Part shown: positions 17,676 through 23,019 of the stretch, piece after piece
Layout: every line of letters begins with the position of its first letter
Numbering within the stretch: position 1 is the first letter of the stretch
DNA from: Candidatus Thorarchaeota archaeon
Lineage (GTDB): Archaea; Asgardarchaeota; Thorarchaeia; Thorarchaeales; Thorarchaeaceae
Assembly: GCA_048884785.1 (NCBI GenBank)
Contig: JBHLQM010000026.1
Location: forward strand, 15,169 to 39,756
Direction of reading: 5' to 3'
Length of the DNA: 24,588 bases
The notes under the pieces: generated by a model
Told to the model about the DNA's origin: nothing
Seen by the model: the letters and a program-made list of their open reading frames with translations, nothing else
Database searches by the model: none
Made by a program: the position numbers and the translations under genes

Positions 17676-18539
17676 TCAAATCCGGATGTCTTTCGGATAA
17701 CGATTTTCAATCCAATAGGCATAACCCTCTTCTGAACATCCAATATTGTCTATGTTTTCCAAGATATGTACATCAACTTCAGGGAAGTGCTTTGTCAGAA
17801 GGGTCTTCATTGATTGTAAACCGTATCTCTCACTAATGTAATGGTTTATTCCTATCAAAGTCACACCCACTTCTCGAGCAATGGTTTCAACAACCCAGTT
17901 AGGGTCTGATGAAATCAAAGTGTCTACACCGAGATCAGCCATCTCTATAATCATCTGATCCACAAACCCTCCTCCAGGAATATAGCCAATTCTGGATGAC
18001 TTACATTGGGGATTGATGATGACAGAGGGATCAACATTCATCACGGTGAGCCTTTTCACCAAGTTGTCAATTGGAATCTCATGATTGACAATTGCACCAA
18101 GATTCTTGATAGCGTGTCCACGATAAGTCAAATCAACTTTCTGAAAATCGCTTCTTGAAAGCCCAAAAGCCCTCAGAAAAGAGTCCCCAATTCCACCAGG
18201 CATAATATCCCATCCAAGATGGAAATTGAATATGCTGTATCTGTCCTTCCGAGCTTGGTCTAGCATTGTTGAGTATATTCGATTCTTATGTGTAGATATC
18301 TTGTGATGCGTTATTACTAAACTATCTTCAGGAATAAGAGAAAAGTTCAGGGGATCCGGATTAATCACTAAGAAAATTGAATCTATGTTCTCTACGGATT
18401 TGACTTCATACCCAAGATGATCGAAGTCATAGAGCTGGGTACGGCTCTCAAGAAACTCAACGACAGTGTCAGACCGAATGAAATTCCTATCTTTGTCCCT
18501 TTTGAATTCTTGATGATAATCCATTGTTTGACTCAGCAT
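17676..18539 (-). CDS. NIF3/YbgI-like (GTP cyclohydrolase I type 2 homolog) dinuclear metal-binding protein
   Basis: Metal motifs ITHH, HLGWD, PGGG, ISSD, NHYISE.YG. Confidence 0.75.
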   Translation of the reverse strand: MLSQTMDYHQEFKRDKDRNFIRSDTVVEFLESRTQLYDFDHLGYEVKSVENIDSIFLVINPDPLNFSLIPEDSLVITHHKISTHKNRIYSTMLDQARKDRYSIFNFHLGWDIMPGGIGDSFLRAFGLSRSDFQKVDLTYRGHAIKNLGAIVNHEIPIDNLVKRLTVMNVDPSVIINPQCKSSRIGYIPGGGFVDQMIIEMADLGVDTLISSDPNWVVETIAREVGVTLIGINHYISERYGLQSMKTLLTKHFPEVDVHILENIDNIGCSEEGYAYWIENRYPKDIRI

Positions 18540-18552
18540 TATTTATTTCTAC

Positions 18553-18599
18553 TATATATTGGACATCCAATATATATAAACATATTGGACGTCCAATAT
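18553..18599. promoter_or_regulatory. Tandem palindromic operator-like sites flanking a TATA box in the NIF3/acr3 divergent region
   Basis: TATATATTGGA-CA-TCCAATATATA (18553-18576) and perfect ATATTGGACGTCCAATAT (18582-18599). Minus-strand TTTATATA lies between/overlapping them. Confidence 0.7.
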
Positions 18600-18636: not shown

Positions 18637-18652
18637 ATCGGAATTATTCGAT
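18637..18652. promoter_or_regulatory. Putative ArsR operator upstream of acr3
   Basis: ATCG-GAATTATT-CGAT immediately downstream of AAAA-TTTAATA (BRE/TATA-like). Confidence 0.55.
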
Positions 18653-18695: not shown

Positions 18696-19793
18696 ATGAG
18701 TACCCCCGTTCCGGGTGCCAAAAGGCCAAGACAAGGTCTCAGCACCCTAGACAAACTTCTTCCCCTCTGGATTTTACTTGCTATGGTAATTGGAGTTTTT
18801 CTTGGCTATTTGGTGCCGGGACTTGCTGATGCACTGAATTATTGGAGTATAGGAACAATCTCAATACCGATTGCAATAGGACTTCTCTGGATGATGTATC
18901 CAGTGCTGGCAAAAGTGAAGTATGAGGAAATTGGCAAGTTGAAGAGGGAGTCTAGGATGTTCGGGGTTTCATTAGCTCTAAACTGGATAATAGGACCATT
19001 CTTGATGTTCACTCTCGCTTGGATGCTCCTTTTCGATTTACCAGAATACCGGATCGGTTTGATTCTGGTAGGACTTGCACGATGTATTGCCATGGTTCTA
19101 ATCTGGAATATGATGGCAGGTGGATGCAGTGAGTCATGTGCAGTGCTTGTTGCCCTAAACTCGATTTTTCAAATAATCATGTACAGTTTTGAGGCCTGGT
19201 TCTTCATAACCTACTTACCCTCAATCATATCTCCCGGAGCGGGTTCCATTGTTGAGGTTTCAATCATTGAGATTGCATGGAGCGTAATAATTTTCCTTGG
19301 AGTTCCTCTTGCGGCAGGATTCATTACGAGGATGACTCTAATTAAGAAACGTTCTAAGGAATGGTATGATTCTGAATTCGCACCAAAACTGGGGCCATAC
19401 GCCCTGATTGGCTTGCTCTTTACAATAGTTGTAATGTTCTCTCTAAAGGGTGATGTTATCGTTGCATTGCCTTTCGATGTGCTAAGAATCTCAATCCCGC
19501 TGCTACTATATTTTGTAATAATGTTCTTGGTAGCATTTGGGCTCTCTTACGCCATGAAATTCAATTATGATAAGAATGTGACAATATCATTCACGGCTGC
19601 AAGTAATAACTTCGAACTGGCAATCGCAGTCGCCATTGGTGTATTTGGAATTGGCTCGGGCCAAGCCCTCGCAGCAGTTGTTGGTCCTCTAATTGAGGTT
19701 CCTGTATTAGTTGGGTTAGTCTATGTATCGCTATGGCTTGGTCGCAAGTTTTACGGGCGCAGTCCTGAAGATGCAGTCCAGTGCGATGCGTAA
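18696..19793 (+). CDS. acr3: ACR3-family arsenite efflux transporter
   Basis: LDK.LPLWI, MMYPVLAKV.Y, LNWIIGPFLMF, GLARCIAMV (conserved Cys), VALNSIFQ, SNNFELAIAVA, GPLIEVPVL. Start ATG 18696 (GTG 18687 possible). Confidence 0.96.
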   Translation: MSTPVPGAKRPRQGLSTLDKLLPLWILLAMVIGVFLGYLVPGLADALNYWSIGTISIPIAIGLLWMMYPVLAKVKYEEIGKLKRESRMFGVSLALNWIIGPFLMFTLAWMLLFDLPEYRIGLILVGLARCIAMVLIWNMMAGGCSESCAVLVALNSIFQIIMYSFEAWFFITYLPSIISPGAGSIVEVSIIEIAWSVIIFLGVPLAAGFITRMTLIKKRSKEWYDSEFAPKLGPYALIGLLFTIVVMFSLKGDVIVALPFDVLRISIPLLLYFVIMFLVAFGLSYAMKFNYDKNVTISFTAASNNFELAIAVAIGVFGIGSGQALAAVVGPLIEVPVLVGLVYVSLWLGRKFYGRSPEDAVQCDA

Positions 19794-19839
19794 GCTCCTA
19801 GGATGAGTTTTGCTTACGTAATAATGGAAAAACTGATAT

Positions 19840-19855
19840 ATCGAAATAATCCGAT
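19840..19855. promoter_or_regulatory. Putative ArsR operator upstream of the HdrA-N/ferredoxin/DGC operon
   Basis: ATCG-AAATAATC-CGAT directly after GGAAAAA-CTGATATA (BRE/TATA-like). Nearly the reverse complement of the site at 18637. Confidence 0.55.
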
Positions 19856-19873
19856 AATTCGAACGATAGTGGG

Positions 19874-20257
19874 ATGGTTTTGATGAGATCGGAAAACCCT
19901 GCATTCATCATGTGTGTTTGCACAGGAAAATGCCCGGGATTTGAAAGGATGGATATTTGGGATTTCATTAACACAGTCCGAATGACGCTTCCTGTTCAGC
20001 ATGGCATAATTCACCCTCAATTGTGTGAAGCCGATGGTGATCGGTATCTGGAGAGTGTGCTAAAATCTGGGCAAAAGGTCTTCATTGGTGGATGTGCTCC
20101 AGCGATGCAATACAAGCTCTTTCGTGATGCCTTTCAAAAATCTGGTCTTAATGTGAGGGAGGATTTAGTCCCTATTGATATTAGGAACATGACTACCGAA
20201 GAGGCGGTTGATATGGTATTAGAGGAGTTGAGGCGACATGGGTATGATGTCGAGTAA
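19874..20257 (+). CDS. Stand-alone heterodisulfide reductase subunit A N-terminal-like Cys-rich domain
   Basis: 'CVCTGKC', 'QLC..DG', 'IGGCAP....KLFR......GLN.......IDIR' mirror the HdrA N-terminal pattern (CxC...MCS..GQ...aCSP....FR....GLN...NIR). No FAD-binding domain. Confidence 0.7.
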   Translation: MVLMRSENPAFIMCVCTGKCPGFERMDIWDFINTVRMTLPVQHGIIHPQLCEADGDRYLESVLKSGQKVFIGGCAPAMQYKLFRDAFQKSGLNVREDLVPIDIRNMTTEEAVDMVLEELRRHGYDVE

Positions 20258-20546
20258 GACAGGGTCAAGTACGACCTTTATGGGTGTTGAGAGAAAGAAG
20301 ATACCTTGGTGGCCCAGTATTGATTCGGAAGACTGTGATGGCTGCAACGGTGAATATGATTGCCTGAAGTTTTGTCCTCACGGCGTGTTCAAGCCGCTTG
20401 AGAATACCATTAGAATCTCAGTTGAGAACAAGTACAATTGCGTGGTCTTTTGTCAGGCTTGTAGCAAGATGTGCCCCAAGAGTGCAATTTCATTCCCATC
20501 AAAATCAGATATTCTCAAACTCATCAAGACTGAACGAGCAAAGTGA
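20238..20546 (+). CDS. 2x[4Fe-4S] ferredoxin
   Basis: CDGC-x5-CLKFCP and CVVFCQACSKMCP. Start may be ATG 20244 or 20247. Confidence 0.88.
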   Translation: MGMMSSKTGSSTTFMGVERKKIPWWPSIDSEDCDGCNGEYDCLKFCPHGVFKPLENTIRISVENKYNCVVFCQACSKMCPKSAISFPSKSDILKLIKTERAK

Positions 20547-20557
20547 GGTAGCATGAA

Positions 20558-21394
20558 ATGGGGCGAAAATACATTCTTCCATGCGCAGGGTATGATCGTC
20601 CGGGCGGTGAGCTTTCAAGGGTCTTAGCAGAGCGTATTGTAAAGACTAGTAATGACGTTGTGATAGGAAGCATGGGCGCATTGTTTAGTGAACGGCCTGG
20701 AGAAATGCGTGACTACAGGACATCGGATATTATTTGTCTAAACGGGTGTAGCACCAACTGTGCATCCGAACTTGCACGACAGCGTGGAAAGAATGATCTC
20801 ACGATTATCTCCATTCCTGAAATCAGTGACCCGCTTGAGGCTTTTGAAGAAAAAGTAAAGCGGCTGGCGGAAACAGTGGAAGAAATCATGGAAAGGATGT
20901 CTTCGAAGGCGACCACTGAAATCACCGTGGATTCTTCGTCTGCATTTGAGTACTTCGAAGAAAAATTCGACAAGTTCGTACTCAGAGTAGCCAAGAACCA
21001 CAAATACTCTGATAATGACTTCTGGGTACGAGTCGAAGGAGAGAGTGTTCGGATTGGAGCTTCTGACTTCCTCCAACAGATGATGTCTGACGTGTACTTT
21101 GTGGATCTTGCCGAGCCCGGTACTCATGTGGATATGTTTGACGATGCAGGTGCAATGGAATCAACCAAGATTCTAGTAGAGATTATTGTTCCGGTATCAG
21201 GTACGATCGTCGAATCAAATGAGTCACTTGTGGATAGTCCCGAACTCATCAATGAGAGCCCGTATGACAGGGGGTGGTTGTATCTCCTAAAGCCCGATGA
21301 TCTCGATGAACTTGAAATATTGAGAGATTCACAAGATTACATGACATATGCTCTAGACAAGGCACGAACTGAAATTGGGAAAAAGGTGGTGTAA
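20558..21394 (+). CDS. Fusion of a DGC-like Cys-rich domain and a glycine-cleavage-H (lipoyl carrier) domain
   Basis: N-terminus: 'ILPCAG', 'ICLNGCSTNCA'. C-terminus: 'YSDNDFWVRVEG..VRIG.SDF.Q', 'MESTK' (lipoyl-Lys position), 'PVSGTIVESN..L...PELINESPYD.GWL'. Confidence 0.85.
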   Translation: MGRKYILPCAGYDRPGGELSRVLAERIVKTSNDVVIGSMGALFSERPGEMRDYRTSDIICLNGCSTNCASELARQRGKNDLTIISIPEISDPLEAFEEKVKRLAETVEEIMERMSSKATTEITVDSSSAFEYFEEKFDKFVLRVAKNHKYSDNDFWVRVEGESVRIGASDFLQQMMSDVYFVDLAEPGTHVDMFDDAGAMESTKILVEIIVPVSGTIVESNESLVDSPELINESPYDRGWLYLLKPDDLDELEILRDSQDYMTYALDKARTEIGKKVV

Positions 21395-21781
21395 ATGAAA
21401 AGAAAAGTAGTGGTCCCATGCAGTGGAATTGGAAAGGCTTTCGGTGCAGTTGCGCGAGAAGCAGTATATCAATTAACGGATTTAGAGCACTCAGAAAGCT
21501 ACATGACAATCTGCCTTCCGCTGTTAATGACCGACGATAATGAATCAAAGCAGATCATTCGAGAGTCTGATGTATATGCCATTGATGGATGTCCTAAGAA
21601 ATGCGCATCAGTACTTGTTGCACATGCAGGGGGGAATCTGGCCATGGAATTAATGGTTCCAACAATTTTGGCGCAAAATAGAACACACAAACCAGAAACT
21701 GTGCTCGACATAGGAGAAGGTGGAAGGCTCTTGGCAGAGGACATCAAGGAGATAATCTTGAAAGGAGGAGGAAAGGAGTAG
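21395..21781 (+). CDS. DGC-domain putative zinc-binding protein
   Basis: VVPCSGIG, TICLP, AIDGCPKKCA. ATG directly abuts the upstream stop. Confidence 0.85.
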   Translation: MKRKVVVPCSGIGKAFGAVAREAVYQLTDLEHSESYMTICLPLLMTDDNESKQIIRESDVYAIDGCPKKCASVLVAHAGGNLAMELMVPTILAQNRTHKPETVLDIGEGGRLLAEDIKEIILKGGGKE

Positions 21782-22185
21782 TGTCATTTACACCAAAGGT
21801 AGGTCTGATCTCCTGTAGTGGTGAAGCGTGTTCCGGGGGCAATATTTCAAGGGCTGCAACACTCGAAGTGCTGCACCACCTGAAACCAGGCGAAACAGTT
21901 ACAATATGTCTCCCTCTCTTCTTGGCAGGAGATAAGTCAGAGCGAGAGTTCGCTAGGCACTTCCCCACAGTTACAATAGATGGGTGCAATAAGCTATGTG
22001 CTGCAAAAGGTACTGCAAAATACAGTAGTGAACCTGCCGTGAAAATCAATCTAGAGGATTACGCAGGGACTGCTTGTACGAATTCCAACGAACGGTGGAA
22101 GATTCACGAGAGCGCGAATATCGTTGCCAAAATTGCAAAGGACATTGCAGAGCATGTAGATTTGTTAAGAGAAAAATGGAAGTGA
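21781..22185 (+). CDS. DGC-domain putative zinc-binding protein (extra Cys)
   Basis: ISCSGEAC, TICLP, TIDGCNKLCA. GTG start overlaps the upstream TAG, with GGAGG upstream. Confidence 0.85.
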   Translation: MSFTPKVGLISCSGEACSGGNISRAATLEVLHHLKPGETVTICLPLFLAGDKSEREFARHFPTVTIDGCNKLCAAKGTAKYSSEPAVKINLEDYAGTACTNSNERWKIHESANIVAKIAKDIAEHVDLLREKWK

Positions 22186-22190
22186 TAGAA

Positions 22191-22469
22191 ATGAGTAGTA
22201 AAGTTCCGGTAATGGTGTTTATGGCAGTAGGAGTGTGCGGTTGTAGTCAAACAGGCTTTCTGGGTCGAGTCTATGACGCCGTAAGGAAACATAGAGACTA
22301 TGTGGACTATAAGGAGTATTCAGCTGACAGTGAAACCGCAAAGAGGTTTGGAATAGGGTATCGTGGCGTGGTTGTCGGCACCATATCACTAGGAAGCAAT
22401 CCTACAGCAGGCAGGATTGAAGAAGCAATCCACACAGAGCTGGAGAAGATGGGCATAAAGGCTCAGTGA
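22191..22469 (+). CDS. Small thioredoxin-fold-like protein with a CxC motif
   Basis: 92 aa from ATG 22191: beta strand, 'GVCGCS', helix, then 'AKRFGI...GVVVG', which resembles small redox-active disulfide or ArsD-like folds. Confidence 0.55.
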   Translation: MSSKVPVMVFMAVGVCGCSQTGFLGRVYDAVRKHRDYVDYKEYSADSETAKRFGIGYRGVVVGTISLGSNPTAGRIEEAIHTELEKMGIKAQ

Positions 22470-22651
22470 GGCTTGAACACCATTGCAAGTTGGCGGATTG
22501 CAGAGCCATATATAGAAACATTGATTTATCGAGATATTCAATGAAGAGATAACGATGGAAATGTGTCTAAGACAATGAGCCAACATGGATGCAGCTTGAC
22601 TGTATGCAAAAAAAGTGTGTTCGATTGGTGTCTAATGACTCTAAAATCTGC

Positions 22652-22667
22652 ATTGAACATAGTCAAT
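22652..22667. promoter_or_regulatory. Putative ArsR autoregulatory operator
   Basis: (C)ATTG-AACATAGT-CAAT(G), with the same N8 spacing as the sites at 18637 and 19840, about 60 bp upstream of the arsR ATG. Confidence 0.45.
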
Positions 22668-22725
22668 GGATTGGAAAAATGGGGACATTCCTTCGGTTAG
22701 AATTTGGAAACGTGGTGCGATTATA

Positions 22726-23019
22726 ATGAAGAGCGACAAGCAAACGGATTGGATAGCTCACTTTCATAAAGCTCTCAGTAATCCTGAAAGATTGAAGATT
22801 GTGGAATTCCTAGCTAATGGTGAGCAGTGCCAGTGTGATATTTTCCCTCAAATTGGGATGTCTCAATCCACGGTTTCTTCATACCTCACCCAAATGGTAA
22901 GAGCGGGCATTCTAACATTCAGAAAAGATGTGACTAGAAAAATCTATAGTATTAGTAACCCACGAATTCGTAAACTGATTGAAGATGTTCGTGAAATAGC
23001 TGCTGATATGACAAGTTGA
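22726..23019 (+). CDS. arsR: ArsR/SmtB-family repressor with an alpha3 As(III)-type site
   Basis: 'KALSNPERLKIVEFL', 'EQCQCDI' (compare ELCVCDL), 'SQSTVS..L..M..AGIL...K......YSI'. Likely start ATG 22726. Confidence 0.88.
   Translation: MKSDKQTDWIAHFHKALSNPERLKIVEFLANGEQCQCDIFPQIGMSQSTVSSYLTQMVRAGILTFRKDVTRKIYSISNPRIRKLIEDVREIAADMTS

Follow-up and report, generated by a model that had tools for sequence, protein, structure and literature searches.

A 24,588-nt stretch from a genome of Candidatus Thorarchaeota archaeon (GCA_048884785.1, contig JBHLQM010000026.1, positions 15,169-39,756), called the window in what follows, carries the gene of an ACR3-family arsenite efflux permease (acr3) and that of an ArsR/SmtB repressor (arsR), with six cysteine-rich genes enclosed between them. 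These are g2, related to the N-terminus of HdrA, a ferredoxin gene, g4, which fuses a DGC domain to a GcvH-type lipoyl carrier, the DGC genes g5 and g6, and g7, coding for a small CxC protein. Judged by gene content, acr3 and arsR are a minimal arsenite-efflux unit, while the insert is a strictly conserved five-gene core (g2 to g6) accompanied by g7, a small protein with a predicted thioredoxin fold. The comparison of gene neighbourhoods indicates that this five-gene cassette is a widespread accessory of the arsenic-resistance islands of anaerobes. Taken jointly with this well-supported statement of identity and context, the proposal that the cassette supplies reducing power to thiol proteins of arsenic resistance has, in our estimate, about an even chance of being right. 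What is established at this locus is the existence of a sister species with acr3 and arsR only, an independent pairing of acr3 with g7, a conserved operator-like site before both promoters, and the failure of an expected anti-correlation with arsC.

In the sister species (G325; locus L167, G325:C122), acr3 (81% identical) and arsR (69%) are immediate neighbours, in that order, and enclose no insert. On this comparison the six central genes are an optional insert in a minimal acr3-arsR efflux unit. In G328 (L168, G328:C17), of the same genus as the window and free of the cassette, an acr3 of another clade is followed by a g7-like gene only; the same pair is found at loci L049 and L053, which indicates that g7 travels with acr3 independently of the five-gene core. 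A third situation is met in G326 (L169, G326:C459), again of the same genus and cassette-free, where an acr3 of a different clade stands beside the c241 and pyrB neighbours of the window; this suggests that the c241/pyrB site is a variable hot spot.

Within the Asgard archaea the order of the core is kept and its surroundings vary. Almost all named homologues of the g4 fusion (45-100% identity) belong to Candidatus Thorarchaeota and one to Sifarchaeia, and six loci retrieved by exact-protein look-ups share the same gene order with differing flanks: in five of the six, g2 to g6 come immediately after a gene of SBF, the Pfam family to which Acr3 belongs, and some loci add a regulator with an HTH_5 domain, a protein of about 207 amino acids (aa) that has no annotation, a DUF5714 protein, and one or two lipoate-protein ligase genes. 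The fusion was further sought in 400 genomes of the phylum, 86 of them in the family of the window. Close orthologues (45-72% identity) were present in about 23 of these 86 and in three of the six genomes of the genus; fusions of the DGC-GcvH type that are full-length and more distant (30-36% identity) occur in another seven Asgard families. When 48 loci were mapped by tblastn, the core (g2-ferredoxin-g4-g5-g6) proved intact in all mapped Asgard families, including one genome assembled as a single contig of 6.0 Mb. In about 15 Thorarchaeota loci the gene just before the cassette encodes an Acr3, drawn from two clades, and in seven further loci Acr3 is encoded within 2-5 kb; two divergent SBF neighbours scored from related loci reached 288 and 293 bits, above the acr3 cut-off.

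The same core extends far into the bacteria. There are 1133 homologues of g2 at E ≤ 1e-5, the bacterial ones being 60-65% identical, and a pattern scan using one genome per species places g2 in at least 306 species. Carriers include Thor-, Prometh- (Loki-) and Heimdall-archaea, Bacteroidales, Actinomycetota, Thermoleophilia, Armatimonadota and Clostridia, and among them are the cultured Acetobacterium wieringae DSM 1911 and A. malicum DSM 4132; a tblastn search of PLSDB found no match to g2 on plasmids. Being conserved across phyla, the arrangement is far from chance. All open reading frames (ORFs) within 7 kb of g2 were clustered for the best 80 loci. The presence of ArsR was judged from Pfam HTH_5 matches and from the ORF clusters. 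The core partners recur in most of them (DGC-GcvH fusion in 73, g5-type DGC in 60, g6-type DGC in 63). So do arsenic genes, with ArsR in 61 loci, Acr3 in 31, LMW-PTP ArsC in 12 and an ArsM-like methyltransferase in 6, bearing out the co-occurrence with acr3 and arsR that was expected from an earlier interpretation of the window (the sequence-only reading). Proteins of thiol and sulfur metabolism are frequent as well (CcdA-type DsbD_TM 24, thioredoxins 18-19, Thioredoxin_3 17, rhodanese 16), and the lipoyl carrier has its own retinue, LplA being encoded in 12 loci and dihydrolipoyl dehydrogenase (Lpd; TIGR01350, 511 bits) next to the cassette in five, all clostridial. Dedicated LplA genes are linked to the cassette in many loci, and some loci add ArsA, OsmC-like or AhpD-like (CMD) proteins. 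The chance of finding Acr3 within 7 kb of a random gene is about 0.5% (a rough figure, taking about 14 genes per 14 kb, about 3000 genes and a nearly single-copy Acr3), so that encountering it at 31 of the 80 loci, which span several phyla, is a strong linkage, although related genomes are not independent.

Particular islands make the association concrete. On an Armatimonadota contig the order is ArsR-ArsC-Acr3-methyltransferase, then, further along, ArsR-DGC-Thioredoxin_3-g2-ferredoxin-fusion-DGC-DGC-thioredoxin-thioredoxin. In Bacteroidales the cassette sits between ArsR-Thioredoxin_3-CcdA and ArsC-Acr3, and the Acetobacterium cassette has two arsC genes and arsR to one side of it, with lpd and arsA opposite. 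Bacterial g2 is frequently preceded at close range by a gene of the Thioredoxin_3 family (for example at L084, L085 and L160), which a preprint equates with ArsE (10.1101/2022.10.17.512643). The Acetobacterium islands (L155 in A. malicum, L161 in A. wieringae) also contain a PF04060 Fe-S protein and a 383-aa protein which, judged by eye, is class-V aminotransferase- or cysteine desulfurase-like. The grouping of the six central genes with acr3 and arsR, proposed from the window alone, is upheld by conserved synteny, a common palindrome of the repressor type, and the recurrence of the same core in the ars islands of unrelated bacteria.

At the locus itself (Table 1), the plus strand between 18687 and 23019 carries all eight ORFs, co-oriented as the sequence-only reading had described them. 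Its account of the central genes as overlapping or at most 11 bp apart also stands at all five junctions from g2 to g7: g2 overlaps the ferredoxin gene by 20 nt, 11 nt separate the latter from g4, g5 starts right after g4, g5 and g6 share 1 nt, and g6 and g7 either overlap by 8 nt or are 5 nt apart, according to the start chosen for g7. The outer gaps are wider, acr3 lying 80 nt from g2 and g7 lying 256 nt from arsR.

Table 1. Genes and candidate operator sites of the locus, in window coordinates
Feature	Position	Strand	Basis or remark
acr3, ACR3-family arsenite efflux permease	18687 (GTG) or 18696 (ATG) to 19793	+	TIGR00832, Pfam SBF
g2, HdrA-N-like protein	19874-20257	+	NF041778, g2 profile vs PDB
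2x[4Fe-4S]-type ferredoxin	20238-20546	+	Fer4_9 + Fer4
g4, DGC + GcvH-type lipoyl carrier fusion	20558-21394	+	GCV_H, DGC
g5, DGC protein	21395-21781	+	PF08859
g6, DGC protein	21781-22185	+	PF08859
g7, CxC protein, predicted minimal thioredoxin fold	22191 (alternative start 22178) to 22469	+	AF2 model, Foldseek
arsR, ArsR/SmtB repressor	22726 (likely ATG; ORF opens 22666) to 23019	+	HTH_5, NF033788
ATCG-N8-CGAT palindrome, candidate ArsR operator	18637-18652		35-50 bp before acr3, just downstream of an AT-rich TATA-like stretch
Second ATCG-N8-CGAT palindrome	19840-19855		19-34 bp before g2, after an AT-rich TATA-like stretch
Weaker ATTG-N8-CAAT palindrome	22652-22667		59-74 bp before arsR; single site, sought at this locus

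The two genes that frame the insert are of clear affiliation. The product of acr3 belongs to the ACR3 family, with a full-length match to TIGR00832 (421 bits for a cut-off of 282.8) and a match to Pfam SBF (1.9e-51); a second copy (77% identical; L170, G000:C108:5899-6468) exists in the same genome, cut by the end of a 6.5-kb contig. The product of arsR matches HTH_5 (1e-11) and NF033788 (66 bits for a cut-off of 55), and its helix alpha3 carries CQC at the aligned As(III)-site position, the ELCVCDL-type Cys pair of As(III)-responsive ArsR/SmtB proteins. Such sites are common in ArsR proteins encoded next to the cassette, with CxC at the As(III)-binding position in 54 of 85 and CC in 18 of 85. 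As for the two perfect ATCG-N8-CGAT palindromes, matches to the motif with one mismatch allowed number 10 in the window for 8.7 expected, so that the two sites would not be significant alone, and their weight comes from conservation in relatives. In most Thorarchaeota loci, acr3-less ones included, the motif stands about 30-40 bp ahead of g2, 16 such sites giving the consensus ATCGARATWWWYCGAT, and a similar palindrome precedes acr3 by 52-99 bp in seven related loci. We infer, with good support, that acr3 and the cassette make up one arsenic-type regulon under an As(III)-type ArsR. Upstream of acr3, at 18556-18599, an 18-nt palindrome also occurs twice, as ATATTGGACATCCAATAT and ATATTGGACGTCCAATAT; the copies lie 26 bp apart and 17-60 bp upstream of a divergent NIF3-like gene (17676-18539, minus strand); since their motif is unlike ATCG-N8-CGAT, they probably serve another regulator.

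Profile searches matched all the protein families that had been recognised by eye (DGC, GCV_H, Fer4 and the HdrA N-terminus), the last of them weakly. The fusion g4 contains a complete GcvH domain (GCV_H, 8.5e-32) after its DGC domain (3.9e-8), and the E-S-x-K motif of lipoyl carriers (E201, S202, K204), in which K204 has the place of the lipoyl lysine, is invariant in 68 of 68 DGC-GcvH fusions. The second Cys of its DGC domain is replaced by Gly in the Thorarchaeota type (here NGC) and present in 48 of the 68. Against a PF08859 gathering threshold of 27 bits, g5 scores 55.9, g6 62.4 and the N-terminal domain of g4 33.7. Four Cys are invariant in g5 (C9, C40, C66, C70; 5.1e-15), while g6 (4.7e-17) has three (C43, C69, C73) and a nearly invariant one (C12), with extra Cys residues conserved in Thorarchaeota. 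An AlphaFold2 (AF2) model of g6, with a predicted local distance difference test score (pLDDT) of 87.7, displays a flavodoxin-like alpha/beta fold, with its four conserved Cys placed after strands 1, 2 and 3 and at the start of the helix that comes next; in the model these positions would be the usual cofactor-binding edge of this type of fold. PDB sequence searches with g6 and with a g5 profile returned nothing meaningful, and Foldseek found no solved structure matching the g6 model at E ≤ 0.001; the best VIA-align match was an uncharacterised Wolinella protein (3pu6_A, Z 9.2), followed by generic flavodoxin-like domains.

Probable electron carriers are encoded just before the fusion. The 127-aa product of g2 is free-standing and the most conserved of the cassette, with a mean column identity of 71% across archaea and bacteria. 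It has no Pfam family and matches the first ~90 residues of HdrA weakly (NF041778, 1e-4), and a profile of 37 homologues run against the PDB retrieved only three HdrA sequences (E 0.005, 0.029 and 0.21). This weak match is co-linear over HdrA residues 5-93 and keeps the Cys-containing motifs, vChC, ymC and aaC of HdrA facing CVC, LC and GGC of g2. With five invariant Cys (C14, C16, C20, C51, C74), g2 is a probable [4Fe-4S] carrier; hhalign detected no homology to DGC proteins, the g2 alignment being shallow. The ferredoxin has eight invariant Cys in an unusual spacing (Cx2Cx5Cx3C and Cx3Cx2Cx3C), and its best NCBIfam matches, under the cut-off, are HgcB-like ferredoxins. In another member of the genus (G330, L054:3851-4156, on one contig) the orthologous ferredoxin gene has an in-frame TGA exactly where the first cluster motif has its second Cys (CDG-TGA-TGEFDC); a selenocysteine ligand, an error of sequencing or a broken gene could each account for it. 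A complex prediction of g2, ferredoxin, g6 and g4, made without control runs, gave a median score of 0.30 for a mark of 0.32.

The last gene of the insert turned out to code for more than the CxC peptide that had been noticed at first. The motif is indeed invariant (GVCGC; C16, C18), and the AF2 model (pLDDT 91.6) is a minimal thioredoxin fold, with the CxC at the position of the CxxC active site of thioredoxins. All top 50 Foldseek matches of g7 in the PDB are thioredoxins or thioredoxin-like domains, with template modelling (TM) scores up to 0.7, the best structural match being the thioredoxin chain of the thioredoxin-ArsC complex (2ipa_A, TM 0.69). On the model, g7 has the beta-alpha-beta-alpha-beta-beta-alpha fold of the superfamily; it lacks the CxxC active site, and its similarity to the Thioredoxin_3 neighbours by hhalign is weak (probability 22%). 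In a Pfam search up to E 0.1, g7 matched no family, ArsD included, and its two Cys contrast with the Cys12-Cys13-Cys18 site of ArsD.

The sequence-only reading had also suggested that the block might do the work of ArsC, which was not recognised in the window. To be sure, there is no ArsC in the window: PF03960 is unmatched in the whole genome, the sole LMWPc match is on another contig (C14), and none of the six central proteins matches the ArsC families PF03960 and PF01451 in Pfam or NCBIfam. The protein encoded on C14 is, however, an LMW-PTP family member with a pI258-type Cys triad (motifs CTGNSARS and VCDSAKQSCP; TIGR02691 E 3e-30, below the curated cut-off), and bacterial cassettes often adjoin an LMW-PTP arsC. 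In the family of the window an ArsC-like gene occurs in 19 of 23 cassette-positive genomes and 37 of 63 cassette-negative ones. With such counts and the frequent adjacency to arsC in bacteria, the predicted anti-correlation fails, and the idea of a substitute for ArsC is not supported. It is more likely, judging from this distribution, that the cassette works with ArsC rather than instead of it.

The reductant-supply reading, a relay that arsenic would induce, would run as follows. Low-potential electrons would enter through the clusters of the ferredoxin and g2 (in Clostridia, NADH may be a second entry via the adjacent dihydrolipoyl dehydrogenase), the Cys4 sites of the DGC domains would pass them on, and the lipoyl disulfide on the GcvH arm of g4 would be reduced; this order, from ferredoxin to the HdrA-N-like protein and then to lipoyl and DGC thiols, is plausible in view of the domains present. 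The dihydrolipoyl arm would in turn reduce arsenic-linked thiol proteins, the thioredoxin-like g7 here and, in bacteria, Thioredoxin_3 (ArsE-like) proteins, thioredoxins with CcdA, LMW-PTP ArsC, or AhpD- or OsmC-like proteins. Arsenate reduction and thiol repair would thereby be sustained, with As(III) leaving the cell through Acr3, and the arm may also bind As(III); the cassette would complement ArsC. The pI258-type ArsC requires a reductant of the thioredoxin type. The step from arm to thiol protein is proposed because known lipoyl proteins serve as reductants of AhpD (in M. tuberculosis, through the chain Lpd-DlaT-AhpD-AhpC) and of peroxidases of the Ohr/OsmC type, both kinds of protein being found in some islands.

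Several observations weigh against this proposal. Acr3 is absent within 8 kb in about one-third of the Asgard loci. Three genes for thioredoxin reductase-like proteins already exist in the genome, and a second reductase system is not obviously needed. The structure search with the DGC model yields only a generic flavodoxin-like fold with no readable function, and the Cys4 sites may bind Fe-S, Zn or As. Finally, a lipoyl dithiol, the classic target of As(III), would be a paradoxical choice of reductant under arsenic stress, unless arsenic binding is the point. Compensation by the cassette for a missing thioredoxin reductase was considered and is rejected in view of the three reductase-like genes. 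A bolder version makes lipoic acid, arsenite's classic target, a working cofactor, the Fe-S-wired dihydrolipoyl arm either reducing As(V) or passing As(III) through the DGC proteins and the CxC thioredoxin to Acr3; it is offered tentatively, as doubtful though worth keeping in mind.

The paradox would be resolved if the reduced dihydrolipoyl arm, the DGC sites and g7 bound As(III) or Sb(III) and delivered it to Acr3 in the manner of ArsD-ArsA, the cell's own lipoyl enzymes being shielded as a consequence. Vicinal dithiols such as dihydrolipoamide do bind As(III) tightly, ArsD is likewise a thioredoxin-fold protein with clustered Cys, g7-like genes accompany acr3 even where the cassette is lacking (L168, L049, L053), and Acr3 is directly upstream of the cassette in the Thorarchaeota loci counted above. 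By contrast, Acetobacterium and several other bacteria have the cassette with arsC, arsA and lpd and no acr3 nearby; the electron-input pair of g2 and ferredoxin, together with the clostridial Lpd, suggests redox turnover over stoichiometric binding; and g7, with its two Cys, is no recognisable ArsD. Capture and delivery as the main role is unlikely, even as it stays the foremost competitor of reductant supply.

Another track leads to sulfur. Lipoyl arm and Cys-rich proteins may carry sulfane sulfur and handle persulfide or thioarsenate in the style of sHdr-LbpA, and this we find improbable. Some repressors of the ArsR type sense sulfane sulfur, not arsenic, thioarsenates occur in the sulfidic sediments that these organisms inhabit, and rhodanese genes are present in 16 of the 80 loci. 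In two accounts of sulfur oxidation, lipoate-binding proteins partner Hdr-like complexes under the ArsR-type repressors sHdrR/SoxR (PMC10451225, PMC12423496). Against it stand the As(III)-type CxC or CC site in alpha3 of the regulators, the identity of the linked genes (Acr3, ArsC, ArsM, ArsA), and the make-up of the cassette, without HdrB/C CCG-domain, DsrE or TusA genes and with a g2 that lacks the FAD core of HdrA.

There is also little chance that the cassette is a ferredoxin-driven arsenate reductase replacing ArsC in anaerobes. A low-potential chain of Fe-S clusters and dithiols would be thermodynamically able to reduce As(V), the window is free of ArsC, and the DGC fold is weakly like that of LMW-PTP ArsC (VIA-align Z 6.6 to 2l17; Foldseek E ~0.05 to 1z2d), a likeness within noise. 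The DGC proteins, however, have no CX5R loop, the genome encodes the ArsC-like protein with its Cys triad, such proteins are no rarer among carriers of the cassette than among non-carriers, and one or two arsC genes adjoin the bacterial cassettes. Least probable of all is a general module against thiol or oxidative stress, merely co-mobilised with arsenic islands, to which the OsmC-, AhpD- and thioredoxin-type neighbours and the patchy presence within the genus (three of six genomes) might point, and which is opposed by the linkage to ArsR of the As type, seen at 61 of the 80 loci over several phyla, by the same candidate operator before acr3 and g2 in Thorarchaeota, and by the Bacteroidales operon, where the cassette lies inside, between arsR and arsC/acr3.

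Some further features of the archaeal loci deserve mention. In other Thorarchaeota and in Sifarchaeia the ~207-aa protein, the DUF5714 protein (Cys-rich at its N-terminus) and two LplA-type ligases flank the cassette (L001:463-3967, L003:8141-11580, L046, L047). In the window's genome (91% complete), tblastn found no orthologue of the genes for the ~207-aa and DUF5714 proteins; the flanking ligases match only paralogues of about 30% identity there, and four LplA-like genes lie elsewhere in that genome. In one Thorarchaeota lineage (L007/L059:8732-10267) a radical-SAM/SPASM gene directly follows the cassette, with an SBF-like transporter, an SLAC1/TehA-like transporter and a g7-like gene further downstream.

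How does this cassette compare with what has been described before? Full-text literature searches found no publication describing it, in line with the original impression that the combination had not been characterised, and to our knowledge the five core genes have neither been given ars names nor been assayed. Classical ars operons (arsR-acr3-arsC; ArsD-ArsA; the ArsT/ArsX thioredoxin system) share with it Acr3, an As(III)-type ArsR and a thioredoxin-fold accessory, and a DGC gene of unexplained function follows ArsP-ArsE (PF13192) inside the ars operon of the sulfate reducer Pseudodesulfovibrio mercurii ND132 (bioRxiv 10.1101/2022.10.17.512643). Unlike the cassette, the ars operons so far described are not known to encode any lipoyl carrier, any protein like HdrA-N, a ferredoxin of their own or a set of three DGC proteins. 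The sHdr-LbpA system has in common with the cassette a GcvH-like lipoyl carrier outside glycine cleavage, dedicated LplA-type ligases nearby, an Hdr-derived Fe-S element and control by the ArsR family (sHdrR/SoxR; PMC10451225). It differs in that the cassette has only the N-terminal domain of HdrA, some 125 residues without the FAD core, and has its lipoyl domain fused to DGC, with linked genes that concern arsenic, not sulfur oxidation; no CCG or DsrE match was found among the cluster proteins, and g2 covers HdrA 5-93 only. Nor is there a link to glycine cleavage, no GcvP/GcvT cluster being found among the recurrent neighbours in the 80 loci; Lpd is confined to the five clostridial loci, and the window's genome has other, plain GcvH matches.

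The Lpd-DlaT-AhpD-AhpC relay and the lipoyl-dependent Ohr/OsmC proteins come near in principle, since there a lipoyl protein is the dithiol reductant of thioredoxin-like or CxxC proteins, as would be the case here, and genes for Lpd, AhpD-like (CMD) and OsmC-like proteins are found in some bacterial islands. The input of the cassette would, by contrast, be ferredoxin and Fe-S clusters (Lpd in Clostridia only), its carrier is DGC-GcvH and not an E2 protein, and its object would be arsenic and not peroxide; by this analogy the cassette resembles lipoyl-based thiol relays in logic only. The HdrA N-terminus/MvhD part of HdrABC-MvhAGD (PDB 5odc, 7bkb) is approached by g2 in its co-linearity and preserved Cys motifs. 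Again there are differences: g2 stands by itself, carries a fifth invariant Cys (CVCTGKC), and would have a small ferredoxin and DGC proteins as partners, not a flavin core.

If the cassette acts on arsenic, it would be a conserved and widespread component of resistance that the current catalogue of ars genes misses. It would matter most in anoxic sediments, in digesters and in gut-type Bacteroidales, where the speciation of arsenic governs its mobility and toxicity. Two orphan protein types, DGC domains and HdrA N-terminal domains that stand alone, would receive a first function, with a new set of ars genes, and lipoyl carriers would be seen at work outside central metabolism in a third case, after sHdr-LbpA and Lpd-DlaT-AhpD. 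Because cultured Acetobacterium strains carry it (L155, L161), the cassette is directly testable, and these strains are practical organisms in which to do so.

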